Source of the DNA: Diplonema japonicum
Lineage: Eukaryota; Protista; Euglenozoa: Diplonemea
DNA length: 64,000 nt
Direction: 5' to 3'
Assembly: GCA_964019335.1 (NCBI GenBank)
Contig: OZ025724.1
Coordinates: forward strand, 186,001 to 250,000
A program made the position numbers and the translations under genes. Shown here in pieces: positions 612-56,347 of this stretch. Below the pieces are notes generated by a model. That model worked only from the letters and a program-made list of their open reading frames with translations, was not told where the DNA came from and searched no databases. Position 1 is the stretch's first letter, and each line of letters begins with the position of its first letter.

Positions 612-1392
612 CTCGATAAAATTTCAGTGTGCATGGGGGTGCTCACTGTTCAGGTAGAAATTCACACTAATCGGTCACCGTTCTGCGGTTGCTGTCTGGT
701 GCCTGCGGTGGCTGTTTGTCGCGATGAGATGGACGGCATCTGGGCGAGAAACACTGCTTGGAGTCGTGCTAGGTAGGGGGGGGTTTGGCTCGAGGAGAAG
801 AGTGGTCTCCTGTCGTAGCCGTGTGCCGTCGGGCCCCCAAGATGTCGAAGGGTATGCACCCTTGATTTGGCGTTGGCGGGGAAGGCTGACCTTCCACAGC
901 GTGCTGAGCATTTCTGGATGCGACCCAAGATGTATCGCATCCTTGCGGCCTTCTCCGTGAGCAGGTCCTGATCGTCGAGGGGACCTATGAGTGACCGGCG
1001 GGTGGTCTGCTCATAGTCTATGGCGAGTTCCATTGTAGTGACGGAAGTTTTCTTCTTACCATCGTACCATCGTAGGCCTCTTAGCCACTTGAGGACGTTC
1101 TTCAGATGAAAGGTCAGGACCGCGCCTGACGCCCCGTTCGCCTTCAGCAACGCTTCCGTCGGAACATCATGTTGCCTCCCTGTCGTTACCTCATCCCAAG
1201 GGTTGGAGGTGAGCACTCTCTTGCTTTTTTCCGCTGCTCTGGCGTCACGGACCGTCACTACTTTCAGGAGGTATTGTTGCACCATCCTGGCACGTTCTTT
1301 CCCTGCTTTGTCGGCCCCTCTTGGGACTATCCCGTGAAGGGCTGTGGCAGCTGGGAGGCCTTCTCGCTTCACCTCTGCGTATTGCTCGCTTG
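612..1392 (-). mobile_element. 5'-truncated non-LTR retrotransposon (ORF2 C-terminus + 3'UTR), diverged relative of the element at 22149-28654
   Basis: ORF 662..1420 aligns with the ORF2 C-terminus (ATALHGIVPRG/ATRLHGVVPRG; VQQYLLKVVT/VQKYLLEVVT; TTMELAIDYE/TTLELALDFE; GGPTAHGYDRRP/GGPTTHGYDRRP; GTRQQPQNGD/GTRQSPQNGD). T-runs at both ends on the sense strand. Confidence 0.9.
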
Positions 1393-10346: not shown

Positions 10347-11990
10347 TCAGAACCCCTTATCATCCTTTGTTGTGGGGAAGATCTGCCCCACGGAGAGATT
10401 GACATCGTTAGGTGTGATCATGAGCTGGTTGCTCCCCTTGGAGAGGTGCTCTACAGAGTCAAGCTTCCTGAGCATGAGGAACATCTTGATCGCCTTGTCG
10501 AGGTCCATGGTGGCAGTGTCCTTCCCTGTGGTCTTCTCCATGAAGGCGACGAGCTTCATGGCCTCTGCCTCTCCCTCGATCCGCGCCTCCGTCTTCAGGT
10601 GGGACTTCTTCAACTCGATGAGCTCCTTCTTCATCTTCTCCTCCTCGATCTCTCCCCCGAGCCTGCTCAGAGCAACCTCGTTCTCACCCTTCTGCCTCTC
10701 CTTCTTCTTCAGCCTGTCCGCTGTCTCCTTGATGATGTCCTGCAGGATCGCATCAGTCTCACTCGAGGCACACTTGAAGCGCAGCACCTCCACCGAGATG
10801 AGGTCCACCCCCCTCTCCTCGTAGAAGGGGTCGTCGATGCACGCCCCGCGGATGATCTCGTTGAACTTCTCCAGGAAATCCAGCAGCTTGATCCTCGACA
10901 CCTCTTGGATGATCTTTGAACGGGCGTGTGTGCACGTGTCCCCAGGGGCATCTGCCGTCTTCTCCACCAACATCGGGACGTCGATGATGGACCAGAAGAA
11001 CGACACGTCCACACACAGCTCCACGTTGTCCACTGTCCTGCAGTTGAACTCGTAGTTCATGTACGACGGGCGCCTGTCGAACTTCCACACAAGGTCCACA
11101 GAGGTGTGCTCCTTCCGCAGGTCTGTCGACCACTCTTGCTTCACGATCTCACAGAAGGGTGGGAGGAAGAAGTTCCTCAGTTCCGAATCCCCTCGCGCGT
11201 AGATGAACTTCCCTGTCTTGTCCTTGTACACCACTGTCTGGTACTCCTCAAGGATGATCTTCTCCTGCACCTCCACGATCTCTTGGTACTTCGAGGGGAT
11301 GAACAGCCCCAGCTGCGAGATCTGCACAAGGCTTCCCGTGTCGGTGTTCCGCACCAGAACACAGTGGTGCTCGTCGACGTTCACCCCGCACTGCACCCCG
11401 CCTATCACCTCCTCCAAGGGGTCTGGAACCACACGCTGCTCCCCGACTTCGATCCTCAGCTTGCCCTCCTGGTCCTTGATCCGCAGGTACTCATTCTTTG
11501 CAAGGTTGTACACCTGTAGTGGTGGTGGTGGTGGGTCGTGGTGGCCATACCTTCTTGTAGGAAGAAATCTCATCATAAGGCCCAGGCTTGAACAGGCTTG
11601 GGCCCACAATGTTCTTCACTGTACCGTTCTCACCTGTTGTGTTTATTTTTTACAGTTTGCCGCTGCTGCTGCTGTTGTGCTGTGTTGTCCCATACCATCA
11701 GTGATAGTGATGTACTGCTGCGCCGTCAGGTTTGGGCAGGTCCCAGAGTGCACCACAGCCTCACGCTCGTTCATCCACACAACGCTTGGCCCGTAGAACG
11801 ACTTCTTCGACCCGAATTCGTCGTTCATCACAATGGAGTACTCCCCGGTCCCGAGCACCAGAGCCCCACGGGACTCCGTGCTGCTGCATGGCCCGTAGCA
11901 CATGACCCCGGGGCCGTTCTCCACCGACCTCTCCCCATTGCACGAGGTGATCAGCAGCTGCTCGTTTTCCTCAAGGCACGAAAAGCACAT
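10347..11990 (-). CDS. Major-vault-protein-like/SPFH (band 7) protein, copy C; exons 11990-11696, 11633-11551, 11513-10347 (514 aa)
   Basis: Introns 11634-11695 and 11514-11550 (GTATG..CAG) restore one frame. N-terminal GP-containing beta repeats, SPFH-like core (CRTVDNVELCVDVSFFWSI..GVDLISVEV), C-terminal coiled coil. Confidence 0.75.
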
Positions 11991-14722: not shown

Positions 14723-16346
14723 TCAGAACCCCTTATCATCCTTTGTTGTGGGGAAGATCTGCCCCACGGAGAGATTGACATCGTTAGGTGTGATCATGAG
14801 CTGGTTGCTCCCCTTGGAGAGGTGCTCTACAGAGTCAAGCTTCCTGAGCATGAGGAACATCTTGATCGCCTTGTCGAGGTCCATGGTGGCAGTGTCCTTC
14901 CCTGTGGTCTTCTCCATGAAGGCGACGAGCTTCATGGCCTCTGCCTCTCCCTCGATCCGCGCCTCCGTCTTCAGGTGGGACTTCTTCAACTCGATGAGCT
15001 CCTTCTTCATCTTCTCCTCCTCGATCTCTCCCCCGAGCCTGCTCAGAGCAACCTCGTTCTCACCCTTCTGCCTCTCCTTCTTCTTCAGCCTGTCCGCTGT
15101 CTCCTTGATGATGTCCTGCAGGATCGCATCAGTCTCACTCGAGGCACACTTGAAGCGCAGCACCTCCACCGAGATGAGGTCCACCCCCCTCTCCTCGTAG
15201 AAGGGGTCGTCGATGCACGCCCCGCGGATGATCTCGTTGAACTTCTCCAGGAAATCCAGCAGCTTGATCCTCGACACCTCTTGGATGATCTTTGAACGGG
15301 CGTGTGTGCACGTGTCCCCAGGGGCATCTGCCGTCTTCTCCACCAACATCGGGACGTCGATGATGGACCAGAAGAACGACACGTCCACACACAGCTCCAC
15401 GTTGTCCACTGTCCTGCAGTTGAACTCGTAGTTCATGTACGACGGGCGCCTGTCGAACTTCCACACAAGGTCCACAGAGGTGTGCTCCTTCCGCAGGTCT
15501 GTCGACCACTCTTGCTTCACGATCTCACAGAAGGGTGGGAGGAAGAAGTTCCTCAGTTCCGAATCCCCTCGCGCGTAGATGAACTTCCCTGTCTTGTCCT
15601 TGTACACCACTGTCTGGTACTCCTCAAGGATGATCTTCTCCTGCACCTCCACGATCTCTTGGTACTTCGAGGGGATGAACAGCCCCAGCTGCGAGATCTG
15701 CACAAGGCTTCCCGTGTCGGTGTTCCGCACCAGAACACAGTGGTGCTCGTCGACGTTCACCCCGCACTGCACCCCGCCTATCACCTCCTCCAAGGGGTCT
15801 GGAACCACACGCTGCTCCCCGACTTCGATCCTCAGCTTGCCCTCCTGGTCCTTGATCCGCAGGTACTCATTCTTTGCAAGGTTGTACACCTGTAGTGGTG
15901 GTGGTGGTGGGTCGTGGTGGCCATACCTTCTTGTAGGGAGAAATCTCATCATAAGGCCCAGGCTTGAACAGGCTTGGGCCCACAATGTTCTTCACTGTAC
16001 CGTTCTCACCTGTTGTGTTTATTTTTACAGTTTGCCGCTGCCGCTGCATACCATCAGTGATAGTGATGTACTGCTGCGCCGTCAGGTTTGGGCAGGTCCC
16101 AGAGTGCACCACAGCCTCACGCTCGTTCATCCACACAACGCTTGGCCCGTAGAACGACTTCTTCGACCCGAATTCGTCGTTCATCACAATGGAGTACTCC
16201 CCGGTCCCGAGCACCAGAGCCCCACGGGACTCCGTGCTGCTGCATGGCCCGTAGCACATGACCCCGGGGCCGTTCTCCACCGACCTCTCCCCATTGCACG
16301 AGGTGATCAGCAGCTGCTCGTTTTCCTCAAGGCACGAAAAGCACAT
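14723..16346 (-). CDS. MVP-like/SPFH protein, copy A; exons 16346-16052, 16009-15927, 15889-14723 (514 aa)
   Basis: Introns 16010-16051 (42 nt) and 15890-15926 (37 nt). Exons are near-identical to copy C, 4376 bp away. Confidence 0.75.
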
Positions 16347-21260: not shown

Positions 21261-22195
21261 TGGTTTTCCCCTCCCTTTTTTTTTTTTTTTTTTTTTTTTT
21301 TTCTCTTTTTTTTTTTTTGTGCTTGCATGTTATGAGGAAGAGTGTGAAAGGAAGACAAAAAGGGAGAAAAAAAAAGTATCGGAAAAAAAAAAAAAGAAAA
21401 AAAAAAAAAAAAGGAACTAAAAGTATCAAGATACGATTTTTTTTTTTTTTTTTTTTTTTCCCTCCCTCCTTCCCGCAATAACTCCGGACGAACGAACCCT
21501 TGAAAGGAGGGGAACGGAAATTTATAAAAAAGAAGAAGAAAAAAAAAGGTTTATAAAAATAAAAAAGAAAGACCCTCGCACTGCACGCAGATAGGCTCAG
21601 GTCATCAACAAAGTCCCCTGGGCTCCACAGCTCAGCTGAAAACAAAAAGGCTTTTTGTAACGACTCTTATCGCTTCATTTTTCATCGTTTTTTTTTTTTT
21701 TTTTTTTTTTCTCGCTCGCAAAGATTTTTTTAAAAATATAAAACCCGTAGAGGCCTTTAAAAAAAGAAATTCACTATGATAGGAACAAAGTGGTTAGCCG
21801 CCGCAGTGTCCCAAAAAAAAAAAAAAAAAAAAGAATAGGCGAGAAGTTAATTATTCTTTTTTGCGCGCGATGGTTACAATTTTTTTCTTCCCTAAAGCCG
21901 AAAAAGAGAAAACGCGTAAAAAAACGCATAAAAATCGCAGCCCAACATTTTTTTTTTTGTTGATGACTACAATTAAACAAGTGCTTTTTTTTTTTTTCTT
22001 TCTTTTTTTTTCTTCTGTTCCATAAAAAAAAGGGGGAGGGATAAGGGGGAAGAAGAAAAAAAAAAAAAAAAAAAACCCTCCTTTTTTTTTTTTTCTTTTT
22101 TTCCTTCCTGCGCACATCCCTGAAGCAACACTAAAAAAAAAAAAAAAACTATTCTTTTAAGGTATGCGTTTTTGCGCTCACCGGCCGCGCTGCGC

Positions 22196-25100
22196 TTAGT
22201 CCCCGTTGTCCCCGTTCTGGGGGCTCTGGCGGGTTCCTACTGCGGTGGTCATGCTGCGGGGCAGCCTTGTCGGTGTCTGCGACAGGTACCTGTCCCGCAA
22301 GCCTTCGATGCTACTCATGGTTCGTTCCGGGAGTACTGGCCTCCTGTCATACCCGTGTGTGGTCGGTCCTCCGATACAGCGTAGGGAGTTGACGCGCTCC
22401 ACTCGCGCCGCTGGGAACGCTACCCCTCTGCCATCAGCGTGGTACAGGTCCTGGACTCGTCTCAGCACATACCGTAGCCTCCTTGCCTTGACGCCCAGGT
22501 CCTCCACCTTGCCCACTTCCCCGCCGTCGTCCAGCGGCAGCTCCATCTCCCGCTCGAAGTCGAGGGCCAGCTCTAACGTCGTCACCGCCGTGTGCCGACC
22601 AGGCGCGTCATCCCACAGCAGGCCTCCCAACCACCTCAGCACCGGCCTCAGCAGCTTGTCCATCACCGTTCCTGACGCCCCCAGCCTTCGTAGTTCAGAC
22701 ACCGCCGGCGTCGGGTGCGCCCTCCCCGTCACGACCGCCCGCCACGGGTAAGCTTGTGTCTGCAGTGCGCGGTTCGCTTCCACCGCTGCATCCCTCCGCG
22801 TGACTACCTCCAGCAGGTACTTCTGCACCAGTAAGGCCCTTGGCTTGTCTTGGCAGCCTCTGGGCACCACCCCATGGAGCCTCGTCGCCTTCGGCATAGC
22901 TGCCGGGTCCAGGTTCGCGTACTCCACCTTGCTCTGCACCGCGACACCCGGCTCGCATCGCCAGAGGGCGTGCTCCAGCACCTCCGTGTAGCTGCCGAAC
23001 CGTTCCTCACACACGTCGCAGAGGTGCTGCAGCGGGTTGTTCGGTTCCTGCGCCACGCCCCGCGCTCCCGGGTAGACCGCAAACACCGCTCCTGCAATCA
23101 GCCTCCTCAGTCGGTACGCCGCCACTGGGTTGCCCGAGAGTGACCTCCACCACACGTTCGTGTCCGGGTCGGCTCCCTCCGGCATGCCGTCGTAGGAGTC
23201 CCTCCCTTCTGCTAGCTCGGCTGCCGTCATGGCCCTCGCCACCCGCCGGATCTCGTGCTTGCGCTCGCGTTCCGGCATGGCACCCAGCCCCACCACGAAA
23301 TTCCAGCCTTTCCCGATCGCCGGCAGCCATCTTCTCATCAGGGTCCCCACTGGCCCCAGGGCTTCAATATCGCACTCCCGGTACAGGGCGGCACACCTCC
23401 CCATCCGGTCCCACAGCTCCGTATCCGACCCGCCTACCTTCACCACTGTGCACAGCAGTCGGTAAAGTGTCACCACCAGCGGGTCCGTCGTGTGCCCTGG
23501 CAGCAAGACGTTCGCAACAGCACACGGCGAGCGCATCTTGAACTTCGGTCCCCAGAGGCACGTCGCAACACTCGCTCGGATTGTACCCGCATCCATTTTC
23601 GAGGGGGGTGCATAGGCAACACCGTAGAGGCAGGAGGGGAGAATGGAGCTGGTGAGGATCCTCGCCTTCTGTGTGAACCCCAGCGGCATGGCGGCCAGTC
23701 TCCCGCAAGCGCGTCCCATCGCCTCAAGGGGCTTCGCCCTGTGCTCGCCGTCCATACATACCCGGACTCCCAGGACGTTGATCTCCTTTTTGGCCGTGAA
23801 CACCTCACGTCCGCACTTCACCGTTCCGTGTTCTGCCGTTGTGAACAGGTCTGTCTTCCTCAGGTTGAGGTTCATCCCTGTCAGCAGAGAGAACTCGCAC
23901 ACCCCCGCTGCCGCCTTCTCCAGGGCGCTGAGCAGAGCTGCTATCAAGTAGACGTCGTCCGCGTATGACAGGGAATCAGCGCCGGGCACCTCCGCCATGA
24001 TGGCCTTCACCATCACCCCTACCAGCGCGTTCACCATCACCACCGAGATCGGGCACCCCTGCAGGATGCCGTTCGACGTAGCAAATTCGTCACCCACCCC
24101 TGTCGGGTATTTGAACCTCCGTCTGAGGGATTCGTACATCGTCTCCAGAGGGCGCAGTATGTTCTGATGCAGTCCCAGGTCCCCCACTAGCCCGAGCGCC
24201 ACTTCCCGCGGGATTCGGTCGAAGCACTTGACAAAGTCTAGCGCGAGCCCGTGCATCGGCGTTCCCGATAGCAGAGCTTCTTCGAGCTGCGTCGTCAGTT
24301 CCAGCAGTAGCGTGTCCGTACCCCTCCTCGACCTAAACCCATGTTGTGACGCGTCCGCCCACGACTCCTGCCAGACCAAGATGCGTCTCATCCTCGTTGT
24401 CGCCCACAGCCTGTACACGGCGCTGGTGACGGTGATCGGGCGGTGGTCCAACGGGGCTCTGCCCTCGCCTTTCGGGATCAGAGAGACAAGCGCTGTCAAT
24501 AGCGCCTCCGGCCACTTGCCGGTCTCCTCGACGATGTTGAAGAGCTGCGCCCACCTCTCGAGCAGCGCGTCAGGTATAGCCTTCAGTTCCGTGATCCTCC
24601 AGCCGTCGACGCCTGGGGTGCCCCTCGCAGGTCTGCTGTTTAACACCTCCCTGAGGTCGCCCCCCGTGATCGGCTCCAGTTCCATGGGGTGTTTATCGAT
24701 ATACCCGCCATACCTCTCTTTGAAAGCAGCGTAGGAAGGTCGGTCACTTTTGTCCGGGTACAGGTGGAAGACGGAGGCCCATGCCCCCCTCATCAGCGCG
24801 TCTATCTCCCCCAGATCTACCGTCAGCCTGCCGTCCTCCTTCGCGACTGCCAATGTGTGAACATCCTTGTCACCTCTAACGTAAGCTACGATCCTCCGCC
24901 TGTCGTCACGGAAATCAGCTGCCACCCGTTTCCTATAACTTGCCTCGTTCTCCAGGCGTTGCCGCATCACCGTGTCTCTGTCAGCCTGCTCCGCCGCAGC
25001 CTCCAGCTCCCGCAGTCCCACCAGCGCAGCCCCCAGGCTAGCCCCCCGTAGCAGGTCCTTGTCCGGCACGACCCCAAGGTGCATCTTCTCGGCCAGCTTA

Positions 25101-26329
25101 ACGATGTTCCGCCACGTCCCGTGCAGCATCGCTGGCAGCGTCCCCGGCCCACCACGCAGCAGTGCCTCGTTCAGCCCCGTCCTGAGCGCCACGATTTTCC
25201 TCCTGAGGCTGCCGTGCATCGTCTGGCCTCGTGCGGCAGCTCCCCCTGACGTCCCCGTCGACTTCGCTGCTACCATCTTCTCCGTCAGCTCTCGCGGCTC
25301 TCCTCTGCCTACGTACGACCTCACCTCCGTCACTCCGGCTGAGCTCAGCATATAGCGTTCGGTAGCGCAGCTCAGCAAGGCGTAGAGGCCCCCCACGTCC
25401 CTGGCGTCAACTGCTTGGTGGATTGCGTCGTCGCCGGCAAGCCCTTGGTCAAGATCAGCGTCGGGCGTCACCGCTCCCACCGGTAGCTCCTTCGGGAGGA
25501 AGAAACGTTTCGTCCGCTTCTTGAGCGTCGGCGTGAAGAGCTCAACGGACAGACACAGGTGCTCCCCGGTCCGCACCCTCTTGTGTGTCCAGAAGCGTTT
25601 CAGCGCTCCGGCAGCCACCGCGTTGGCCAGGACGAAGTCTATCCGCGTCTTCGTCTCCGTCCCGGGTCGTTCGAAGGTGTGGTCCGGTTCCCGTCCGTCC
25701 TTCTCGGCCTGAAGCGCCCCGACGTCGACCCAGTCGTTTTCCACCGCGTGTTTCAGCGTCGCTGACCCGGAAACGTCCGTGTTCAGATCCCCTAAGACCA
25801 GGATCGGCACCTCCCCGAGTTTAGCCCTCAGTTCAACGAGCAGCGAGTGTAGGAGTCGTTCCCTGTCAGCCTTCCCGTAGTGGCCGGCGCTGCAGTACAC
25901 CGTGATGACGTGGACCCATAGATCGCGGCCATCCACATTTATCATAGTGTGCAGCCACCTGTTCGGCTGCACTGTGATCCCCGATACTGGAGCCACGATG
26001 GCCGGCCTGCCTTTCTTCGTCAGCACAGCGACGCCCCCCCTTTGCCCAAGGTTTGGATTGAGTACCCCTGCCCTGTCCGGCGTGCCATCCTGAGCGCGAC
26101 CCCACAGGGGGTGATACCCGCCTTCATCAACAGCTTGCGACAGTTGGCGTTGACCGTGCTCAGTGAGTTTGGTCTCCTGCAGGCAGATCACCTCATCCTG
26201 CGTTGCTAGGACCTGCGGGAGCTTGTTGTGCAGGGACCCGACATTCACCGATGTGATCCGGAGCACGTCATCGAGCAGAGGTGGGCCACTAGCGCTTCCT
26301 CCACTCATCCCTGCCACAAGCTGTAATTG
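22196..26329 (-). CDS. Retrotransposon ORF2: APE endonuclease, reverse transcriptase, C-terminal CCHC knuckle
   Basis: APE: NVGSL, LQET, GDLNT, RIDFVL, GEH. RT: PGVDG, RPIT, QHGFR, DFVKCFD, GILQGCPIS, YADD. CDVC..EHALWRC. Open from the codon right after the ORF1 stop, in the same frame; first ATG at 26308. Confidence 0.95.
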   Translation of the reverse strand, partial: QLQLVAGMSGGSASGPPLLDDVLRITSVNVGSLHNKLPQVLATQDEVICLQETKLTEHGQRQLSQAVDEGGYHPLWGRAQDGTPDRAGVLNPNLGQRGGVAVLTKKGRPAIVAPVSGITVQPNRWLHTMINVDGRDLWVHVITVYCSAGHYGKADRERLLHSLLVELRAKLGEVPILVLGDLNTDVSGSATLKHAVENDWVDVGALQAEKDGREPDHTFERPGTETKTRIDFVLANAVAAGALKRFWTHKRVRTGEHLCLSVELFTPTLKKRTKRFFLPKELPVGAVTPDADLDQGLAGDDAIHQAVDARDVGGLYALLSCATERYMLSSAGVTEVRSYVGRGEPRELTEKMVAAKSTGTSGGAAARGQTMHGSLRRKIVALRTGLNEALLRGGPGTLPAMLHGTWRNIVKLAEKMHLGVVPDKDLLRGASLGAALVGLRELEAAAEQADRDTVMRQRLENEASYRKRVAADFRDDRRRIVAYVRGDKDVHTLAVAKEDGRLTVDLGEIDALMRGAWASVFHLYPDKSDRPSYAAFKERYGGYIDKHPMELEPITGGDLREVLNSRPARGTPGVDGWRITELKAIPDALLERWAQLFNIVEETGKWPEALLTALVSLIPKGEGRAPLDHRPITVTSAVYRLWATTRMRRILVWQESWADASQHGFRSRRGTDTLLLELTTQLEEALLSGTPMHGLALDFVKCFDRIPREVALGLVGDLGLHQNILRPLETMYESLRRRFKYPTGVGDEFATSNGILQGCPISVVMVNALVGVMVKAIMAEVPGADSLSYADDVYLIAALLSALEKAAAGVCEFSLLTGMNLNLRKTDLFTTAEHGTVKCGREVFTAKKEINVLGVRVCMDGEHRAKPLEAMGRACGRLAAMPLGFTQKARILTSSILPSCLYGVAYAPPSKMDAGTIRASVATCLWGPKFKMRSPCAVANVLLPGHTTDPLVVTLYRLLCTVVKVGGSDTELWDRMGRCAALYRECDIEALGPVGTLMRRWLPAIGKGWNFVVGLGAMPERERKHEIRRVARAMTAAELAEGRDSYDGMPEGADPDTNVWWRSLSGNPVAAYRLRRLIAGAVFAVYPGARGVAQEPNNPLQHLCDVCEERFGSYTEVLEHALWRCEPGVAVQSKVEYANLDPAAMPKATRLHGVVPRGCQDKPRALLVQKYLLEVVTRRDAAVEANRALQTQAYPWRAVVTGRAHPTPAVSELRRLGASGTVMDKLLRPVLRWLGGLLWDDAPGRHTAVTTLELALDFEREMELPLDDGGEVGKVEDLGVKARRLRYVLRRVQDLYHADGRGVAFPAARVERVNSLRCIGGPTTHGYDRRPVLPERTMSSIEGLRDRYLSQTPTRLPRSMTTAVGTRQSPQNGDNGD

Positions 26330-26335
26330 CTATTG
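26321..26335 (-). promoter_or_regulatory. Stop-codon readthrough signal CAA-TAG-CAA-TTA-CAG
   Basis: Minus strand reads (CAA)5 TAG CAA TTA CAG CTT GTG; fits the UAG-CAR-YYA consensus and separates two in-frame ORFs. Confidence 0.85.
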
Positions 26336-28624
26336 TTGTTGTTGTTGCACCGGCCCTTGGGGCAGCAGTAGCGGGGTGGCCGGGTGCTGTGGGTCGACCT
26401 GCATCTGTCCCGTTGGTGTGCTAGCGGTGGATCTCGTGCCGGACTTCGAGACCTTCCCGCCCTTTTCCTCACCTCCTGCCGTCCTCTTCCGACTAGCACT
26501 GCTCGTCAACGCCACCGCCGCCAACTCGGCAAGCTGTTGTTCCACGTCCATCAAACGCATTTGCGTGCTCTCCTGCGCCTTCTGCATCCGAGTGATCTTT
26601 GCCAGGGCCTCTCGTAGTGCCTGCGCCATCGCCTGCTGGTCCGCCTGCCTCCTCTCCTGCTCGAGTCGAAGCTTCGCCATCGTCTCCTCGTGTCGGCGGT
26701 CCTTTTCGGCGTACTCGGCCTCCTTGGACTGCCACCACGAGTGGAACGATTGCTCGGCTCCCTCACTCCGCGTCGGACGCTTGGCAGGTCGAGGTTGTGC
26801 GGCGGGCCGCAGGGGTGGGAAGTCGCTCGTCTTGTTCTTGGTCGCAGGTGGAGGGGGAGGCTTATGTGCTGGCTTCTTTGCCCCACACTTGCTCCCCCAC
26901 GTGGAGTGCTTCAGGAGGTCTCCTTCCGCACCGTGCGGCCGGATCAGCCACTGCTCGTCGCCGCTCTCGAACATGAGGCCTGGTGGATCAGCCTCCGACG
27001 CTACCAGCCATGTGCAGGTTTTTCTGCCACTCGCCAGTACGCGCACCGCTTGTGCTGCCCACCCGATCGCGCGCAGCCTCTGCTCCACCACCAGCCCCGG
27101 GACCTGCGTTCCCATCCCCTTGACCGTGAAGGGGGCCCCCTTGATCGGCACCGGACGGCGGTCCTTCACCTTCTTCGCGGTCCTGTTGTGGAGGAAGGCC
27201 ACCATTTCTTCTAGTCGTTCTGCTTTCACGCGGATCCCGTACTCTCCCGTGCCCTTGCTCCATGCCACCCCCAGCCCGTCTGCCTGCTTTGCGAGGAGAG
27301 CGGCGTCAGTCGCCGAGGCGCCTTCGATCCACAGAACGGGAAATTTGCTCGTCGATTGGTGTGGGGGACGTACATAGACTCCACCGGTCCCACTGTGTCG
27401 GTACAGGGTCTCCAGGTCCGCTCGGGCAACTACCATGCACAGCTCGGCGCAGCCGTCCCTCTTCGATCCCGTCCTCGGCTCGACCCGCGCCGTGCACTTG
27501 CTCGCGGCCCAGCGAACGAGGTCCCTCCTTGCGTCGTGGTAGTCCTTCTTGGTCCTCTCCACCAAGTAGACCTCGGCAGCACAGCTCTCGACCGCGGGGA
27601 CTACCACCGTCTTCTTGACCTGCTTCAGGGGTGCGCCGCCCTTCGCCGTCACCCACAGCCTGCGCACACACCTGCCCTTGCCGCCGTCGGTCGCCAGCAC
27701 CACCTGCTCCAGTACTCCCGGCATCGTGGGGAGTTTGGCCCTGGACACCAAGGTGGGTCCTTCCTTGTCGTCTGCGTCCATCAGCCACAGGGACGCCACC
27801 TTTTCCATACCTGCAGGGACGAGCAGGACCGATCTGTTCCTGCCCACCTGCGGCGTCCAGTCGCCGGAGAATGCCTCCCAGCCGTCACTCACCAGCACCG
27901 CGTCGTCTTTCGTCGTTGCCTCGTTGTCACCGTCCTCGGCGTCCTTCGTTTCCTTAGCCTTTCGGGCTGCTGCCGCTCTCCTCTTCGCGCTCTCGCTCAG
28001 GAAGGGCATGGGCACCTTCGGGTTGTTGTAGGTGCCTGCTGCCGGGAGCGTTGTGCCCTCACGCACCGACAGCGCCACGTAATGGGCGGCAGCGAACCCC
28101 AGGTATATGGGGGTGCTCTCTACCGCGTTGCGCGAGGGGAAGGAGGTGCACAACAGCTCCCCGTCCTTCACCTGGTAGCAGGCCAGGTGGCGCCGGCACA
28201 CCACGCTGAGCGCGAGGAGCTGCAGGATGTCCCCCCACGCTCCGTCCTTCACTGCTTGCACATATTCCCCGTAGCGCTCGGGGGCATACAGCAGTGCACT
28301 GTTGTCGGTTGATGCCAGGTGGCTAGCCACCAGCTCCCTCAAGGCCGATCCAGCAGAGGTGCCCTGATGGATCGCTACTGATGTCGCCTCGTAGAGGCAG
28401 TCCCCCTCCGTCTTGGAGAAGTCTCTGATCGAGAACCCTTCTCCCAGCTTCGCCTGAAGCTCCGCCTTCGCCTTGCCCACCTCGCTTCCCGTTCCCGTCC
28501 CGCGGCCGGAGCCTTCGCCGCTACCACCACCCCCCATGTGGCAGCGTTGCCCGGGGTTCAACCTCGAGGAGGTCGCTCCCACCGCGCTGGACGTCGATGA
28601 TAGTGTTGGTGTTGATGTTGCCAT
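26330..28624 (-). CDS. Retrotransposon ORF1: N-terminal OTU-like cysteine protease and C-terminal coiled coil (764 aa)
   Basis: EGDCLYEA (Cys76), LRELVASHL, AWGDILQLLALS, IYLGFAAAHYVAL (His181). Heptad-like region EETMAKLRLEQ...LAELAA near the C-terminus. Confidence 0.85.
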   Translation of the reverse strand: MATSTPTLSSTSSAVGATSSRLNPGQRCHMGGGGSGEGSGRGTGTGSEVGKAKAELQAKLGEGFSIRDFSKTEGDCLYEATSVAIHQGTSAGSALRELVASHLASTDNSALLYAPERYGEYVQAVKDGAWGDILQLLALSVVCRRHLACYQVKDGELLCTSFPSRNAVESTPIYLGFAAAHYVALSVREGTTLPAAGTYNNPKVPMPFLSESAKRRAAAARKAKETKDAEDGDNEATTKDDAVLVSDGWEAFSGDWTPQVGRNRSVLLVPAGMEKVASLWLMDADDKEGPTLVSRAKLPTMPGVLEQVVLATDGGKGRCVRRLWVTAKGGAPLKQVKKTVVVPAVESCAAEVYLVERTKKDYHDARRDLVRWAASKCTARVEPRTGSKRDGCAELCMVVARADLETLYRHSGTGGVYVRPPHQSTSKFPVLWIEGASATDAALLAKQADGLGVAWSKGTGEYGIRVKAERLEEMVAFLHNRTAKKVKDRRPVPIKGAPFTVKGMGTQVPGLVVEQRLRAIGWAAQAVRVLASGRKTCTWLVASEADPPGLMFESGDEQWLIRPHGAEGDLLKHSTWGSKCGAKKPAHKPPPPPATKNKTSDFPPLRPAAQPRPAKRPTRSEGAEQSFHSWWQSKEAEYAEKDRRHEETMAKLRLEQERRQADQQAMAQALREALAKITRMQKAQESTQMRLMDVEQQLAELAAVALTSSASRKRTAGGEEKGGKVSKSGTRSTASTPTGQMQVDPQHPATPLLLPQGPVQQQQQ

Positions 28625-28689
28625 AATGTTTCTTTTAACCCAAATTCAGAACCCCTGAAAAACGTTCTTTTTTTTTTTTTTTTTTTTTT

Positions 28690-31279: not shown

Positions 31280-33012
31280 TGGAAAACGGGTGGAGCCAGA
31301 GATGGTAAATTATAATAGAGGTAAAAAGAAAATGTTTTGGACAAAAAAAAAGGGGGGGGGGAACAGATTTGTTGTTAAATTTAAATAGTCCTACGTGTAG
31401 TTGGGTAGTTTTCCCCCTTCCTTGCGGTTCTTTTTTGTCTTTCGTTTTTTTCACACAAAAGACGAAACCAAGGGTGTTTTCGAAGTGACTCGCTTGGTCA
31501 CACAAATTCGAGAAGAAGAGGGAAAATAGAAGAAAGAATAAAAAGAAAAGAATATATATAAGAGATAAAGAAGGCCAGTGTTGGTGGCGCCTTGCATACT
31601 GTCTACTTCAGAACGAATGGAGAGAAAAAAAAATTCACTATGATAGGAAACGAAGTGGTTTGCAACGGCACACCAAAAAACATTGATCTTATTTTTTGTT
31701 CAAATGGAATATGGTCAGCAAAAAGAAAAAAAAAAAAAAAAAAAAAAAGAGACATTTAAGGGTACCTGCGGTATGTGGCAGGACGCCAAAAAAAAAAAAA
31801 GGTTATATTTAAGGGCAAATTCCACTTGAGGAAGTAAGAAAAAGTCCATAATTACTCCTTTGTGCCGAGTAAGGGTTTACTTCTGCAGGTATTTTTTGTT
31901 TTTTTTTTTTTTTTTTTTTTTTCCTTTTTCTTTTACAAGAACGAGTCTTGACTTGTCTAAACGAATGTTGACAAGTTTTTTTTTTTTTTTTTTTACATGC
32001 CATATTATTTGTGCACAGAAAGAAGAGAGAAAAAAAAAAAAAAAAAAGGGGGAAAAAGAAAAGTAAGTTGCTTTTTCCGTTCTCCTTTCCCCCCCTTTCT
32101 GCGCAAGATAAAAAAAGAAGAAAGAAATAAACAGAAGAGAACATCAAATCAATGGGAGGAGGGGAAATAAAAAAAAAATGAAAAAAAAAAAGAAAAGAAA
32201 GAAAAAAGAAACTGTAGAGGATGAACTAGTATACTCACACTATAATCACAACACAAACAGTAGAGTTCCGGGTGCACTGCATGCTCACCCTGGCACTCGT
32301 TTTTTTTTATTTTTCTCTCTGAAAAAAAAACAAAAAAAAATTGCTTCTGGTTACATACGCACAACGCGATATTTTTTTCACAGTTTCTGTGCTCTGGTGA
32401 GATGTGAAATTCTTAACCCTCCTATTTCACTCATTTCACCTCAAGGAAAAACCCAGGTACAAAGAAAATCGCCAGAAATTGCCAACACCGTAATAACCAC
32501 AAAAAAGATTTGCAACAAAAAAATATGGAAAGCTTTTTTGCATCTTGTCGAAATACAGGCTGAGGCGAGGGTCTTTGATTTTTGTTTTGTTTTTTGGAGA
32601 CCGTTTCGAAAAAAAAAAAAAAAAAAAAGAAAAAAAAAACCACAGAGACTGTAGTTCAAAAAAAAAAAAAAAAAATTGCTTCGGTCAGAAACTTTATTCG
32701 CTCAAGGATTCTGTCATTATTTACGCACGAATAAAAAAATTCGATAAAGCTTCAGTGTGCAGGGGGCTCACTGAAAAGAAAACAAAAACAAAAAAAATGC
32801 CACGAAAAATGAATAAAAAAAAAAAAAAAGTACTGTGAATGTAAGGAAACAAACAAACAAAAGGAGAAAGAGAAAGCACATAACAATTTTCGCAAAAAGA
32901 GAAAAAAAAGATCGGGTAGGGGGCGGGAGAACACAATTGAAACTCAACTAAAATAAATAGCTGGGGGTTATAACGGGATATGGGTGGGGCAGGGGGGAAA
33001 TGGTTTCATATT

Positions 33013-36000
33013 TTATATACTGACAGCCTCTCTTCGGAAGCTTGTGCTCGAGGAGACCGGTGAATAATCCGAGTATGGCGAGTGTTGTGGGTGTGAGTGT
33101 GGTGCAGAGTATACTTGTTGTTCGTGCATGCCCTCTGTCATTTCCATAATTTCACGCAAAGTAACATCATTGGAGCCACGCTTCTTCCAGATGACGAAGG
33201 CCAGCATCCCACACATGGCAAGGAGGGAAACGATAGCTACAAGGATCCAGATCCACACGGTGCTGCCCCCATCGCTGCCGCACTCAGCTGCTTCACCGAC
33301 CTTTGTGACGGTCCCGTCGTTCTTGCATGTGCACACATAGTCCCCTTGCACCCCGAAGTCCTTGTCTTCGCACAGCTGGTCTTCCTTCGTGCCACACACC
33401 TCCTTCTCCTCACACTCGTCCTTCCCCTGCGCACCCGGTGCTTCCATCGGCAATGGCACACTTGTCTCCGGTGCAGTGCCAGGACCCATCGTGGGCATCG
33501 CCGTTGCAGGCGCTTTGGTGTCAGGAGCGTCAGTCGTTGGTGGGTAGGTCGACCCAGCAGGCAACGTGGTAGGTTCTGCAGTTGAAGGGGCATTCGTCCT
33601 CGGTGCATCGGTATTCGGTGGGTAGGTCGATCCAGCAGGCAACATAGTAGGTTCCGCAGTTGAAGGGGCACCAGTGGCGGGTGGGTTAGTACTGGGGGCA
33701 TTCGTCCTTGGTGCGTCAGTCGTTGGTGGGTAGGTCGACCCAGCAGGCAACATAGTAGGTTCTGCAGTTGAAGGGGCATTCGTCCTCGGTGCATCGGTAT
33801 TCGGTGGGTAGGTCGATCCAGCAGGCAACATAGTAGGTTCCGCAGTTGAAGGGGCACCAGTGGCGGGTGGGTTAGTACTGGGGGCATTCGTCCTTGGTGC
33901 GTCAGTCGTTGGTGGGTAGGTCGACCCAGCAGGCAACATAGTAGGTTCTGCAGTTGAAGGGGCATTCGTCCTCGGTGCATCGGTATTCGGTGGGTAGGTC
34001 GATCCAGCAGGCAACATAGTAGGTTCCGCAGTTGAAGGGGCACCAGTGGCGGGTGGGTTAGTACTGGGGGCATTCGTCCTCGGTGCGTCAGTCTCTGGCG
34101 GGTAGGTCGACCCAGCAGGAAGCACAGTGGGTGCCATCGTATCAGGTGCAGTGGTGACTGGTGCTGAAGTAACAGGTGCCACAGTGTCACGGGAGGCAGT
34201 GTCGGGTGAGTATGTCTTCCCAGCGGGGAGAGCTGTAGGTGCCATCGTGTCAGGAGCAGATGTTGCTGGTGCCACAGTATTGGGTGCTGTTGTATCAGGG
34301 GCATTAGTGGCAGGTGCTGAAGTCACTGGAGCCATGGTAGCAGGTGCCATCGTGTCAGGTGCGAATGTCTTCCCAGCAGGAAGAGGCGTGGGTGCAACTG
34401 TGTCAGGTGCAGATGTTGCTGGTGCCATAGTGTCGGGTGCATTAGTGGCAGGTGCTGAAGTCATTGGAGCCATGGTAGTAGGTGCCATCGTGTCAGGGGC
34501 AGCAGTGTCGGGTGAGAATGTCATCCCTGCGGGGAGAGGTGTGGGTGCGACAGTATCAGGTGCAGATGTTGCGGGGGCTGTTGTGTCTGGAGCCATGGTA
34601 TCAGGGGCGCTAGTTGCAGGTGCTGATGTAACAGGTGCCATCGTAGCAGGTGCCGTTGTGTCAGGCGCGCCAGTAATAGGAGCGGAGGTGTCTGGGGCAG
34701 GTGTAGCGGGAGCAAACGTTTTACCTGCGGGGAGAGGCGTGGGGGCAACAGTGTCAGGGGCAGATGTTGCGGGTGCCGTTGTGTCCGGGGCCATGGTATT
34801 CGGTGCTGATGTGTCAGGGGAGGCAGTGATCGGGGCTGTGGTAGTTGGTGCCATCGTGTCAGGGGCGGAAGTGTCGGGTGCGAATGTCTTCCCGGCGGGA
34901 AGGGGCGTGGGTGCAACAGTGTCAGGGGCAGATGTTGCGGGTGCCATCGTGTCAGGGGAAATAGTAACTGGTGCCATTGTGGTGGGGGCTGAGGTAGCTG
35001 GTGCCATCGTGTCAGGGGCGGAGGTGTCGGGTGCGAATGTCTTCCCAACAGGAAGAGGCGTAGGGGCAACAGTGTCAGGGGCAGATGTTGCGGGTGCCAT
35101 CGTGTCGGGTGCTGAAGTCACTGGAGCCATGGTATTCGGTGCCATTGTGCTGGGAGCTATAGTGTCAGGGGAGGCAGTGTCGGGTGCGAATGTCTTTCCA
35201 ACAGGAAGAGGCGTGGGTGCAACTGTGTCAGGTGCAGATGTTGCTGGTGCCATAGTGTCGGGTGCCATCGTGTCGGGTGCAGTAGTAGCGGGTGCTGAAG
35301 TCACTGGCGCCATGGTATTCGGCGCCGTTGTGCTGGGAGCCATCGTGTCAGGTGCCATCGTGTCAGGTGCCATCGTGTCAGGGGCGGAAGTGTCTGGTGC
35401 GAATGTCTTCCCAACGGGAAGAGGCGTGGGTGCCATCGTGTCAGGAGCAGATGTTGCTGGTGCCACAGTATTGGGTGCTGTTGTATCAGGGGCATTAGTG
35501 GCAGGTGCTGAAGTCATTGGAGCCATGGTAGCAGGTGCCATCGTGGTGGGGGCTGTGGTGTCAGGTGCCATCGTGTCAGGGGCAGCAGTGTCGGGTGCGA
35601 ATGTCATCCCCACAGGAAGAGGTGTGGGTGCGACAGTATCAGGTGCAGATGTTGCGGGGGCTGTTGTGTCTGGAGCCATGGTATCAGGGGCGCTAGTTGC
35701 AGGTGCTGATGTAACAGGTGCCATAGTTGCGGGAGCCATTGTAGCGGGAGATGATGTATCTGGTGCCACTGTGTCAGGGGCAGCAGTAACAGGTGAGGGG
35801 GTGTCAGGAGGGGTGGTGGTTGGTGCCATCGTATCAGGAGCGAGTGTCATCCCAATAGGTAGTGGAGTAGGCGCAATCGTAATAGGTGCCATCGTGTCAG
35901 GTGCTGCTGTATCAGGAGCTGTTGTGTCGGGTGCTGTTGTGTCAGGAGCCGTTGTGTCAGGAGCTGTCGTGTCAGGAGCTGTTGTGTCAGGAGCTGTCGT

Positions 36001-37713
36001 GTCAGGAGCCGTTGTGTCAGGAGCCGTTGTGCCAGGAGCTGTCGTGTCAGGAGCTGTTGTGCCAGGAGCTGTCGTGTCAGGAGCCGTTGTGCCAGGAGCT
36101 GTTGTGTCAGGAGCTGTCGTGTCAGGAGCTGTCGTGTCAGGAGCCGTTGTGCCAGGAGCTGTCGTGTCAGGAGCTGTTGTGTCAGGAGCTGTCGTGTCGG
36201 GTGCTGTCGTGTCAGGAGCTGTCGTGTCAGGAGCCGTTGTGCCAGGAGCTGTCGTGTCAGGAGCTGTTGTGTCAGGAGCTGTTGTGTCAGGAACTGTCGT
36301 GTCGGGTGCTGTCGTGTCAGGAGCTGTTGTGTCAGGAGCTGTTGTGTCAGGAGCTGTCGTGTCGGGTGCTGTCGTGTCAGGAGCCGTTGTGCCAGGAGCT
36401 GTCGTGTCAGGAGCTGTTGTGTCAGGAGCTGTTGTGTCAGGAGCTGTCGTGTCGGGTGCTGTCGTGTCAGGAGCAGTCGTGTCAGGAGCATCGGTCATCG
36501 GAGCAGGTGTAGGTGCTATCGTCGGTGCATGAGTGTCTTCACAGCCTCTCCACTTGAGTAACTCAGCACCGACAGGCTTCGACCAGCTGCCCGCCGAGTC
36601 GTCGTTGGCCACCCAGAAGAAAGCCCCCCCGTTGCAGGGGTAGGCGTCGTGGAGGTCCTGCAGCACTTTAATGGTCGCGGCAGCATTGGCATTAGAGCCC
36701 GTCGCGCTGCAGTCGTTGATGCAGAAGCCGAAGATAACCTTCTTCGGGTCACCGCCGAAGATGTCGTTGACCATGTCCGTGTAGTGCGTGAGTGCGGCAA
36801 CGGAACCCGACCCCGTTCCAGAGATGCCGTCCTTTGCAGCCATCGTGACACCGTTGTAGTATTGTGGCATGAGAAAGTCGAGCGAGCTGCTCACAGACTT
36901 AAGCGTGTTGAAGTAGCCTGTGCCCTTAACAAGGTCAATATCCATCGGGGCGTGGGTCACCTCCTTGTCCGATGAAAGAGAGGAACGCAGCCCGGTAGTC
37001 ACATCGGCCAGGAACTTCTGCGCTTCAGCTCCTTTCGAAAATGAAGACCCCCTCTGCCCGTTCTCATAGTAATACTCGTAGTCGATGTCCACACCGTCGA
37101 AGCCCTGCGCGTCCACGATGGTTTTAAGCTGCGAGACAACAGAAGCCTCTTTCCCGTAGCAGTACTCCCAGCAGTCGTTGTTCCCGTCCCAGGAGCCTCC
37201 CATGCCGGCACCGCCGAAGGAAAGGATGACCTTTTTGCCAGCGGCCTTCCATGCGGCGACGAGGGTGGGGTTCACTGCGTTGCTGCAGATCGGGACGGGT
37301 GAGGCGATCTTACATGCTGCATCACAGTTGTTCTTCCCTGGGGCCCATGTGTAGGTTACGGCGAAGGACACGAGGATGTGGGTGTACTGTGCGTACTGCT
37401 CGATGGTGGGGCAGGCGTGCCAGTTCCCGAGGTATGCGATGAGCCGATGGTCGTGAGAAGCACCGACGTTCGCCCCTGGGGGCAGCGGGGGGGCTGGGGT
37501 GCTGGGAACCGTACCTGCCATCGCTGGGCACCACGTGTCCCCTGCACCTTGACAACCAGCCTGCGTCCCACTACCCATGTAGCAAGGTGCCGCCCACCCT
37601 GCGTGGTAACACTCAAAACCAGAACCTTTGTTGACACACTCTTGGCATTGTGCAACCGTCTGCCCGTCGACCGACCATGCCACCGCTACTAGCAGTGCAA
37701 AAACAACACGCAT
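33013..37713 (-). CDS. Membrane-anchored GH18 chitinase-like protein with ~1000-aa Pro/Thr/Ala stalk, EGF-like module and TM helix (1566 aa)
   Basis: Signal peptide MRVVFALL after (T)nCCCGCAG; KVILSFGG and DGVDIDYE (DxxDxDxE); DECEE..C..CED..DYVCTC; TM VWIWILVAIVSLLAMCGMLAFVIW-KKR. Confidence 0.9.
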   Translation of the reverse strand: MRVVFALLVAVAWSVDGQTVAQCQECVNKGSGFECYHAGWAAPCYMGSGTQAGCQGAGDTWCPAMAGTVPSTPAPPLPPGANVGASHDHRLIAYLGNWHACPTIEQYAQYTHILVSFAVTYTWAPGKNNCDAACKIASPVPICSNAVNPTLVAAWKAAGKKVILSFGGAGMGGSWDGNNDCWEYCYGKEASVVSQLKTIVDAQGFDGVDIDYEYYYENGQRGSSFSKGAEAQKFLADVTTGLRSSLSSDKEVTHAPMDIDLVKGTGYFNTLKSVSSSLDFLMPQYYNGVTMAAKDGISGTGSGSVAALTHYTDMVNDIFGGDPKKVIFGFCINDCSATGSNANAAATIKVLQDLHDAYPCNGGAFFWVANDDSAGSWSKPVGAELLKWRGCEDTHAPTIAPTPAPMTDAPDTTAPDTTAPDTTAPDTTAPDTTAPDTTAPGTTAPDTTAPDTTAPDTTAPDTTAPDTTAPDTTVPDTTAPDTTAPDTTAPGTTAPDTTAPDTTAPDTTAPDTTAPDTTAPGTTAPDTTAPDTTAPDTTAPGTTAPDTTAPGTTAPDTTAPGTTAPDTTAPDTTAPDTTAPDTTAPDTTAPDTTAPDTTAPDTAAPDTMAPITIAPTPLPIGMTLAPDTMAPTTTPPDTPSPVTAAPDTVAPDTSSPATMAPATMAPVTSAPATSAPDTMAPDTTAPATSAPDTVAPTPLPVGMTFAPDTAAPDTMAPDTTAPTTMAPATMAPMTSAPATNAPDTTAPNTVAPATSAPDTMAPTPLPVGKTFAPDTSAPDTMAPDTMAPDTMAPSTTAPNTMAPVTSAPATTAPDTMAPDTMAPATSAPDTVAPTPLPVGKTFAPDTASPDTIAPSTMAPNTMAPVTSAPDTMAPATSAPDTVAPTPLPVGKTFAPDTSAPDTMAPATSAPTTMAPVTISPDTMAPATSAPDTVAPTPLPAGKTFAPDTSAPDTMAPTTTAPITASPDTSAPNTMAPDTTAPATSAPDTVAPTPLPAGKTFAPATPAPDTSAPITGAPDTTAPATMAPVTSAPATSAPDTMAPDTTAPATSAPDTVAPTPLPAGMTFSPDTAAPDTMAPTTMAPMTSAPATNAPDTMAPATSAPDTVAPTPLPAGKTFAPDTMAPATMAPVTSAPATNAPDTTAPNTVAPATSAPDTMAPTALPAGKTYSPDTASRDTVAPVTSAPVTTAPDTMAPTVLPAGSTYPPETDAPRTNAPSTNPPATGAPSTAEPTMLPAGSTYPPNTDAPRTNAPSTAEPTMLPAGSTYPPTTDAPRTNAPSTNPPATGAPSTAEPTMLPAGSTYPPNTDAPRTNAPSTAEPTMLPAGSTYPPTTDAPRTNAPSTNPPATGAPSTAEPTMLPAGSTYPPNTDAPRTNAPSTAEPTTLPAGSTYPPTTDAPDTKAPATAMPTMGPGTAPETSVPLPMEAPGAQGKDECEEKEVCGTKEDQLCEDKDFGVQGDYVCTCKNDGTVTKVGEAAECGSDGGSTVWIWILVAIVSLLAMCGMLAFVIWKKRGSNDVTLREIMEMTEGMHEQQVYSAPHSHPQHSPYSDYSPVSSSTSFRREAVSI
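33530..34120. repeat. Coding tandem repeat, 186-bp (62-aa) unit x ~3
   Basis: aggttctgcagttgaagggg recurs at 33571, 33757 and 33943. Confidence 0.9.
35900..36490. repeat. Coding 15-bp minisatellite, (D/G)TTAP x ~39
   Basis: gtcaggagctgt(c/t)gt units, encoding the pentapeptide stalk. Confidence 0.95.
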
Positions 37714-37802
37714 GACTGCGGGAAAAAAAAAAAAAAAAAAAAAAAGAAAGATTTCCTGTGAAAAATGAGAAAATGGGGAAGTAAAATGAAAGAAAAGAGA
37801 GG

Positions 37803-38141
37803 TCAGCAAAGCATGCTGTGTAACTCTTCTAAACTGCTCGCTACCTTCACACCACAGGGCAACTCCGAGGCTGCGGTAGTGGTGAACAAGATGAACTTGC
37901 TTATCTGTAAGCCCTTCACAGCTTCGTATAAATCTAGCCCTGCTGTCTGCGATTCTTTTCTCCGCATGTTTGACACGACACACACGCCTGGGTCGCTCTG
38001 CTCCACTGCCTTCACTGCTTCTTCCGTGCTGGTGACCTTCACCACCTCATGCAAGCATTTATCTACGTATTCACGTATTTCTCTCACGTGCTTCCCACCC
38101 CTAGCGGCTTCAAAGGCTTTGTCAGCCCATATTATTCTCAT
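37803..38141 (-). CDS. Stand-alone CheY-like (pseudo)receiver domain protein (112 aa)
   Basis: RIIWAD..VVKVTSTEEAV..CVVSNMRR..AGLDL..FILFT follows the receiver beta/alpha pattern. The phospho-Asp position is Asn. Confidence 0.6.
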   Translation of the reverse strand: MRIIWADKAFEAARGGKHVREIREYVDKCLHEVVKVTSTEEAVKAVEQSDPGVCVVSNMRRKESQTAGLDLYEAVKGLQISKFILFTTTAASELPCGVKVASSLEELHSMLC

Positions 38142-41283: not shown

Positions 41284-41333
41284 CTATTCTTTTAAGGTAT
41301 GCGTTTTTGCGCTCACCGGCCGCGCTGTACTTA
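41284..41333 (-). mobile_element. Solo 3'UTR stub of the OTU-LINE
   Basis: 44 nt identical to 22149-22192, with similarity continuing to the stop codon; T-runs on both sides of the sense strand. Confidence 0.85.
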
Positions 41334-42865: not shown

Positions 42866-43736
42866 TTCTTTTTTTTTTTTCCCCCTGAATTTTTTTTTTT
42901 TTGGCCCCAGTTGGTAGATTAACAGATTGTTTTCAAAAATAAGAAAAAAAAAATAAAAAAAAACGTGTGGGGCAATAGGGTGTAAAGAAACGAAAACAGA
43001 TCTTACTTGTTTTATATATGAGTCTGTCCGGAAAGAAATGTGAACAAATGACCCTCTTTTGCAACGGAATACCCTCGGAAGATTTATAAAGTACAAAAGT
43101 AGTCCGACACCACTTTGTGTGCAGAATTGCAGTCTAAGCTTGAACACCACTTAGGTCACAACGCGCGCCGTTTGTTTCATTTCTAAAACGCGCGCGTGCA
43201 AAACATGCTTTTAGAATGGTTTCTTTTTGGTTTTTGGCATTCGGAAATTGTAAAAAACGACTCTGGTTGTACCCAGGGTCACAAGTGTGTATGTGCACCA
43301 CTTTTATGCACCCTAGGTGCTGTATTTCAAGCAATATTTTAAACATTCTTTTCCCGACCTCTGTTCTTCGCTTCCCGGGGGCAACCGGTTGCAAAGCCTG
43401 CCACCCTCATGATCGCAATTGAAAGAACTGCGGCAGGTACACCATATATGTCATCTTCCTATGGTTGCATGCTGCCCTTTTTTTTTTTTTTTTTGCTCAA
43501 AAAATCAAAACAAATGATTTTCGAACTGCCAGTTTTTTCTTTTTCTTTTTTCATTCTTTTTTCTTTTCTTTATTCACTTTGTAAACGTTAGCCAGATATA
43601 CAAAAACACGTCACACCACGTTCACCCATCACCAACAGGTGGCCCGTTCCACAGTATATGTTACAAGAGCATCGCGCTCCTTTCAAAGTTACGGCCGCAA
43701 TAGAAGACCGTTCGTAGATTGATTTTCAATACCACT

Positions 43737-45026: not shown

Positions 45027-45221
45027 TTTATTTATTTTGTTTGGCCGGTCGGCCTGAGAAGATGGAAGAGACTAGGTACAGAAAGAAAATATATGAGACA
45101 AGAGGGCAACCCCTCTCCCTTTACACTTACTTCACTCTGCTGGGAAACAATAAAAAAAAAAAAAATCGCTTTGATTGGGACGTTGGTAATAACAGAAATG
45201 AACTAAAATAATGCAATATTC

Positions 45222-47749: not shown

Positions 47750-47981
47750 AACTGGAGTTATATAAAAAAAAGAAAAATTCGATGTAAACTCCGAGAGAGC
47801 CGCAGGAGGGGTATGGACCGTACTTGGTAGTTTTCAGTTTCGGACATATCTCACGACTCTTCTAGGTGGCGCCCCAGATGGTAGGAGAGTACTGTACACA
47901 CAAAAAAGAAAAGAATAGACGTTATTTGTTCCGCTGCTGGGGAAGCCCTCTTCCACCCAATAAAATATGAAAAGGGAGCTT

Positions 47982-52810: not shown

Positions 52811-52871
52811 GGTGTAAAATCCCTTTAGGGATAAGTTTAAGTTCCCTTGAAGACTCTGCAAATGCAGTTAA

Positions 52872-56314: not shown

Positions 56315-56347
<33 letters not shown>

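Follow-up and report, generated by a model that had tools for sequence, protein, structure and literature searches.

A conserved 3'-terminal hairpin in two T-run-bounded LINE families of Diplonema japonicum as a likely signal for reverse transcription

Insertion of LINEs proceeds by target-primed reverse transcription. Stringent LINEs need a 3' stem-loop that is bound by ORF2p, which recognizes the stem generally and the loop specifically, and retrotransposition of ZfL2 is abolished by deletion of the stem-loop, by its disruption and by loop swaps (PMC4176376). In UnaL2 a mismatch within the stem is needed for efficient retrotransposition (PMC1636434). In diplonemids, whose genes are likely co-transcribed and trans-spliced, the RT-domain orthogroup OG0000014 has 1178 members in Diplonema papillatum and none in the trypanosomatids listed (PMC10161547). 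The 3' stem-loop of stringent LINEs is a known theme; what is new in the locus described here are the T-bounded ends and the very short derivatives.

The window, by which we mean the whole 64,000-nt stretch of D. japonicum DNA that was analysed (contig OZ025724.1), is eukaryotic, with long ORFs mostly on the minus strand and spacers rich in A and T runs. Two LINEs were identified in it, one apparently full-length (E1) and one 5'-truncated (E2). Their features are as follows.

22149..28657, minus strand: E1, apparently full-length LINE of about 6.5 kb, with a 33-nt 5' UTR and T5 before it
26330..28624, minus strand: E1 ORF1, 764 aa, with an N-terminal OTU-like cysteine protease domain
22196..26308, minus strand: E1 ORF2, 1370 aa, APE endonuclease and RT
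22161..22182, minus strand: E1 3' hairpin, with a 4-bp lower stem (one G-U), an A.A mismatch, a 3-bp upper stem and a 6-nt loop
22149..22160, minus strand: E1 tail between hairpin and T run, 12 nt
22133..22148, minus strand: T16 at the 3' junction of E1, likely derived from the target
612..1390 (start approximate), minus strand: E2, 5'-truncated member of a second LINE family that retains the last ~240 aa of ORF2, between T15 and T13
625..648, minus strand: E2 3' hairpin, with a 5-bp lower stem, an A.A mismatch, a 3-bp upper stem and a 6-nt loop

The 5' end of E1 was placed by inference from the T5 junction, and the element lies just downstream of a host ORF ending at 28690. The E2 ORF2 stop is at 662-664 and is followed by the hairpin and a 13-nt tail. 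Elsewhere the window carries a tandem array of eight pectin acetylesterase-like genes (41504-58547; Pfam applied to one), two identical 422-aa SPFH/Band 7 (major-vault-like) ORFs at 10347-11615 and 14723-15991 that represent a recent duplication, and a GH18 glycoside hydrolase with a long Thr/Ala/Pro/Asp repeat stalk (33013-38046).

Analysis of E1 ORF2 revealed an APE endonuclease at residues 21-230 (PF03372), an RT at 612-850 with YADD at 782 (PF00078) and a C-terminal CxxC..H..C motif at 1097; its best PDB matches were L1 ORF2p first and R2 next. With both enzymes in E1 ORF2 and with 5'-truncated copies (E2, M1 and M2) that have a common 3' end, the elements are APE-type non-LTR retrotransposons. 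ORF1 and ORF2 of E1 are in one frame, separated by one TAG and seven codons (26330-26308); read-through and separate trans-splicing are both possible. The E2 protein is identical at 238 of 240 aa to a D. japonicum transcriptome protein and E1 ORF1 is 96% identical to another, and therefore both families have transcribed members. At least four further LINE families are present as proteins of D. japonicum or D. ambulator, and relatives of E1 exist in D. papillatum. In an RT tree of 29 rows, constructed without reference clade members, E1 grouped with three D. japonicum proteins (support 93/98, unstarred).

Two clades were considered for E1 and rejected. Membership of CRE/SLACS was ruled out by the APE endonuclease and by flanks consisting of protein genes. 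The INGI clade was ruled out by a search of ORF2 for RNase H, a feature of that clade, which gave no match at E values up to 0.1, and by the 33-nt 5' UTR, the lack of an Rfam match and the T run at the 3' end.

The OTU-like domain occupies ORF1 residues 72-161 (window 28411-28142, minus strand) and contains candidate Cys and His residues. It stands at the start of ORF1 in E1, and directly before the endonuclease in a single ORF in the protein P0006 and likewise, below the cut-off, in P0007. A search of the ESM Atlas with ORF1 residues 230-600 returned nothing at 0.9 or above. Our literature search, whose scope lay outside subscription journals and Repbase entries, found no description of a LINE with OTU in ORF1. 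At the other end of the coding region, a short G-D/E-(R) motif following a poorly conserved stretch is kept at the ORF2 C-termini of E1, E2, P0001, P0003, P0005, P0082 and P0089; its conservation may reflect either the protein or an RNA signal that overlaps the coding sequence.

The two hairpins had been proposed in a first-pass annotation of this DNA, and both are present on the minus strand exactly as written there, each folding as described and lying 12-13 nt before a sense-strand T run. They start 13-16 nt past the ORF2 stop and, like those of stringent LINEs, sit within the 3'-terminal tail, followed by 12 nt and T16 in E1 and by 13 nt and T13 in E2. Folded alone, the hairpins reached -7.4 (E1) and -7.8 (E2) kcal/mol (z -2.8 and -2.95), and within a context of 105-168 nt the seven shared pairs had probabilities of 0.91-0.96 in E1 and 0.78-1.00 in E2, which makes them the dominant predicted local fold in both elements. 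Compared with shuffles over the whole 3' UTR, the 53-nt UTR of E2 gave z -2.65, and the 50-nt UTR of E1 was not stabler (z 0.02). A search of the window against Rfam gave no matches.

Comparison of E1 and E2 upheld the earlier view of the two sites as 3' ends of diverged LINE families. The ORF2 proteins are 46% identical over the last 250 aa, and fourfold-degenerate sites are saturated (22/71 identical). The remainder of the UTR differs, as had been claimed, with 5/15 positions identical upstream and 5/11 downstream of the hairpin. Within the hairpins 14/24 bases are identical, including 11 of the 16 bases of stem and mismatch, and four of the six loop positions differ. Tested against the fourfold sites, the hairpin identity had a binomial probability of 0.002-0.005, or 0.15 if 30 alignment registers are allowed. 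Among 300,000 shuffles of the E2 UTR the geometry arose in 0.9%, and in 0.13% together with the A.A mismatch. The hairpin is conserved beyond chance, well above the saturated neutral sites.

The pairing changes were examined separately. Four of the eight pairs are invariant, two show double changes (both G-C to A-U), one shows a one-sided change (G-U/G-C) and one outer pair exists only in E2; all five stem base differences keep pairing. When the five stem substitutions were placed at random, all seven shared pairs were kept with at least two double changes in 0.4-5% of cases, depending on transition bias. A partner-shuffle control, in which 117/500 reached the score, is uninformative at n=2. 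Of the compensatory conservation proposed earlier, the conserved hairpin and the pairing of all stem changes therefore stand, while the covariation, which comes from two families and two double transitions, is suggestive only.

These figures bear on two alternative explanations. The likeness of the hairpins could be left over from common descent without selection, and the double changes could be chance transitions; with transitions only, all seven pairs are kept by chance in 13-15% of cases and in 4.5-5% with two double changes, and small hairpins are not rare before T runs, since 13 of the 115 minus-strand T runs in the window are preceded by one at -6 kcal/mol or better. This is the least probable of the readings, given that the hairpin keeps its length, its geometry and 14 of 24 bases where fourfold sites are saturated and the flanks have diverged. 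Alternatively, recognition could depend chiefly on sequence, namely the invariant stem core plus the final bases ahead of the T run, or take place at the DNA level, with the pairing incidental. Conservation is indeed mostly of sequence, four of the seven shared pairs being invariant, and the plus strand can fold as well; we nevertheless consider this very unlikely because every stem difference preserves pairing, including the G-U/G-C pair that is valid only on the sense RNA.

A geometry scan combined with BLAST of the LINE 3' ends in the window revealed, as a new finding of this analysis, two mini-copies that consist of little more than hairpin and tail. They are the short partners sharing the hairpin for which a search had been suggested.

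41284..41332, minus strand: M1, mini-copy of the E1 3' UTR, 49 nt, the last 44 nt identical to E1
32740..32773, minus strand: M2, E2-type mini-copy, 34 nt, starting at the first hairpin base

The M1 hairpin is at 41296-41317, and the copy is preceded by T8 and followed by T10. M2 lacks 3 nt from the loop and top of the stem, has a variant 13-nt tail and lies between T4 and T7. A covariance model built from E1 and E2 (R1) found only E1, E2, M1 and M2 below E=1 in the window; E1 and E2 were used to build it, and M1 has the same hairpin sequence as E1. Nine further window matches at E 2-5 were rejected as chance. A weak hairpin before a T run, on the plus strand at 31656-31694, resembles R1 at E=2 and was treated as chance. 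Both mini-copies are wholly LINE 3' UTR, and the Rfam search of the window detected no tRNA, 5S or 7SL Pol III head of the kind that marks a classical SINE. The LINE tail is thus common to short non-autonomous copies.

Analysis of the junctions indicated that T runs flank both sides of all four copies, a feature absent from the first-pass annotation; the elements end in these and not in poly(A) or short repeats as UnaL2 does. The spacing from hairpin to T run is 12, 13, 12 and 13 nt in E1, E2, M1 and M2, and the A.A mismatch is predicted in all four, a mismatch or internal loop in the stem being a feature of stringent LINEs. The sense-strand 3' T runs measure 16, 13, 10 and 7 and those at the 5' junctions 5, 15, 8 and 4, so that the lengths on the two sides are unequal, which bears on target-site duplication. 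Neither a poly(A) tail nor terminal (TGTAA)n was found in any of the four window copies. The simplest reading of these ends is insertion into A/T tracts with duplication of the T run.

Two regularities at the junctions were noted post hoc. An AG lies within 4 nt of the T run at every 5' junction, against base rates of 11% after T runs and 22% at random E1 positions, and resembles a trans-splice acceptor. Directly after every 3' T run there is an A (base rate 48/146), and this step resembles the T/A site of the L1 endonuclease, which cuts at T/A. For E1, M1 and M2 a host stop codon is found no more than ~240 nt upstream, and the three are therefore likely inside host 3' UTRs. All four copies are co-oriented with the gene cluster, which is not significant (~0.10; 115/204 T runs are on that strand).

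We asked whether similar copies occur in public data by aligning the contigs of four public runs to the E1 3' region (1223, 413, 24 and 38 records). Among the 21 of 149 loose-end rows listed, truncated E1-family contigs pass into a plus-strand A tract at 22190-22195. Of the contigs leaving E1 there, at least nine in X6 carry the M1-type junction (agreement 0.65), and at least two more are from X6, at least five from X2 (mixed consensus) and at least one from X12. M1-like copies are therefore recurrent, whether they form a family or arise at a truncation hotspot, and the window's own M1 may be among them. The E1-family depth in X6 is ~4-10-fold lower 1.1 kb upstream than at the 3' end, as 5' truncation predicts, depth being different from copy number.

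None of the 40 difference rows listed out of 237 falls within 22161-22182, and at least five of them lie at four places in 22191-22202, in alignments that end at 22160; invariance of the hairpin within the E1 family is thereby only hinted at. In one contig from X11, 9 nt of the hairpin appear to be missing, and this deletion, like that in the loop of M2, may reflect decay after insertion. At 22202, a loose end in X2 (2 contigs, agreement 0.87) has an in-frame stop and GGTG 12 nt later within a stretch of 30 letters only, which hints at a third family.

Whether the mini-copies move by themselves is a narrower question, and for them the balance is even between self-propagation and ordinary dead 5'-truncated insertions arising at a hotspot near the stop codon. 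The absence of a tRNA, 5S or 7SL head from M1 and M2 is what dead insertions would show, the two bases that set M1 apart from E1 are also found in contigs extending past 22202 (X12), the loop of M2 is damaged, and further truncation points occur at 22195 and 22207 among the rows listed. On the other side, 22192 is the largest loose-end group among the rows listed in X6 (9) and in X2 (5), above what random truncation over 6.5 kb would give. Self-movement of M1 and M2 is putative.

Metagenome and genome scans (11 and 6 loci) yielded distant relatives only, 28-53% identical in amino acids in the best segment and mostly ending before the stop, and another 22 loci, taken from four genome bins, contributed a single new 3' end (L039). 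The first-pass annotation had named lack of the hairpin in additional families as a result that would speak against it, and here the outcome was unfavourable: none of five distant relatives (L003, L006, L008, L012 and L039; ~30% aa) has the geometry near the ORF2 end, in sequences that may stop short of the true termini and include no diplonemid family. L037 was left out because of a stop inside the ORF. The R1 model gave no matches in 14 relative loci or in the four genomes, and viral contigs contained neither relatives nor matches to the pattern of hairpin plus T run. The absence of a shared geometry in distant relatives counts against a role in RT recognition.

The five distant 3' ends comprise two with strong long hairpins after the stop, one with a terminal hairpin at z -1.3 and two with nothing notable. 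The two long hairpins (L012:4852-4910 and L039:2039-2095, both in G001) directly follow the stop (z -3.3 and -4.2), and the base of both stems carries CACACA, to which an ACACA in L003 is similar. The bins G001-G004 are prokaryotic; their contigs with eukaryote-type LINE ORFs (28, 5, 8 and 5 matches) are likely contamination.

Such hairpins directly after the stop in two distant relatives from one bin are among the observations that would suit a selected RNA structure serving processing or stability (3'-end formation, decay protection or translation of an mRNA cut from a polycistron) in place of RT recognition. The E1 and E2 hairpins follow the ORF2 stop by 13-16 nt, their host lineage regulates expression post-transcriptionally (PMC10161547), and conservation by itself cannot separate the two roles. 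We regard RNA processing as unlikely all the same, as it leaves unexplained both the constant distance of 12-13 nt between hairpin and insertion junction in four of four copies and the recurrent short copies made of UTR only.

Taken together, the hairpin is a structure conserved at the 3' terminus of a lineage of diplonemid LINEs and, judging from sequence comparison, probably a cis signal for RNA selection by ORF2p and for the start of reverse transcription. It is likely a recognition and positioning signal similar to that of stringent LINEs, combined with priming by a target A-run on an RNA U-run; by analogy with those LINEs, loop specificity of ORF2p recognition is putative. The element would have no promoter of its own, as its 33-nt 5' UTR suggests, and would be transcribed within host polycistronic RNA that runs past the element end and through the downstream U run. 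With such read-through of the U run, the start of copying would have to be set internally, and the hairpin would be the evident reference point for it. Having bound the hairpin, ORF2p would nick a genomic A/T tract; the freed A-run would pair with the U-run located 12-13 nt beyond the hairpin, copying would begin there, and a T run would be left on both sides of the new copy, a mirror image of the poly(A)/T-run priming of L1. Recopying of a T-bounded copy would give these ends anew, and copies cut down to the 3' UTR would retain the signal and could be recopied from host transcripts.

A bolder version, which we put forward tentatively and consider possible but doubtful, is that a promoterless diplonemid LINE lineage targets sense-strand poly(T), uses the hairpin as a ruler for the RT start in read-through RNA and mobilises hairpin-only retroposons of 35-50 nt from host mRNAs. 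If true, few self-propagating retroelements would be smaller, and the T-run-AG 5' junctions could also create trans-splice acceptors. The interest of the system lies in its being T-bounded on both sides, in the shortness of the signal (only ~35 nt) and in mini-copies that lack a Pol III head and sit in a polycistronically transcribed genome. If the reading holds, it would supply a minimal cis element that directs insertion by RT to A/T tracts, and internal initiation could be tested in it. Diplonemid retroposons, whose curation the D. papillatum genome paper left open (PMC10161547), also begin to be curated here. Our literature search, with subscription journals and Repbase outside its scope, found no description of this hairpin or of T-bounded diplonemid LINEs, and the words 'stem-loop' and 'SINE' are absent from seven supplements of PMC10161547.

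Among described elements, the D. papillatum orthogroup OG0000014 is an expanded RT family of diplonemids and euglenids of which E1 is a candidate member; it was annotated by similarity only, and its ends are not described in the passages of PMC10161547 consulted. The trypanosomatid INGI elements (ingi and L1Tc, with the short RIME, NARTc and SIDER) are also APE-RT retroposons accompanied by short derivatives, and their euglenozoan host genomes likewise combine polycistronic transcription with trans-splicing, but they have RNase H, a 5' Pr77 promoter/ribozyme and a poly(A) tail (PMC12278014), none of which E1 shows, and E1 has a separate OTU-bearing ORF1. Zorro3 of Candida albicans (L1 clade) shares homopolymer tracts at both ends and insertion into tracts near genes, with the opposite polarity, sense-strand poly(A) in Zorro3 and poly(T) here (PMC3956500).

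The monocot L1 LINE1-1_ZM and ZmSINE2/3 have a common 3' end of ~50 nt with a hairpin backed by compensatory changes, and a conserved CGAG stands 3' of the stem (PMC3472496). CGAG also ends E2, whereas E1 ends otherwise and the match may thus be due to chance. The L2-clade elements UnaL2, ZfL2-1 and ZfL2-2 and their partner SINEs likewise carry a short 3'-end hairpin with a mismatch in the stem; the stem is more conserved than the loop between families and the tail is common to short non-autonomous copies (PMC4176376; PMC1636434). Sequence and geometry differ, with an A.A mismatch and a 6-nt loop in E1 and E2 and a bulged C and U-U mismatch in UnaL2, which ends in TGTAA repeats (PMC3747384) and not in a T run. 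Unlike the SINEs of UnaL2 and ZfL2, the short partners here have no Pol III head, and the function of the hairpin is putative. By analogy, the diplonemid hairpin would work like the tails of UnaL2/ZfL2 and of the monocot L1/SINE pairs, departing from them in the terminal repeat, the place of which is taken by a T run.
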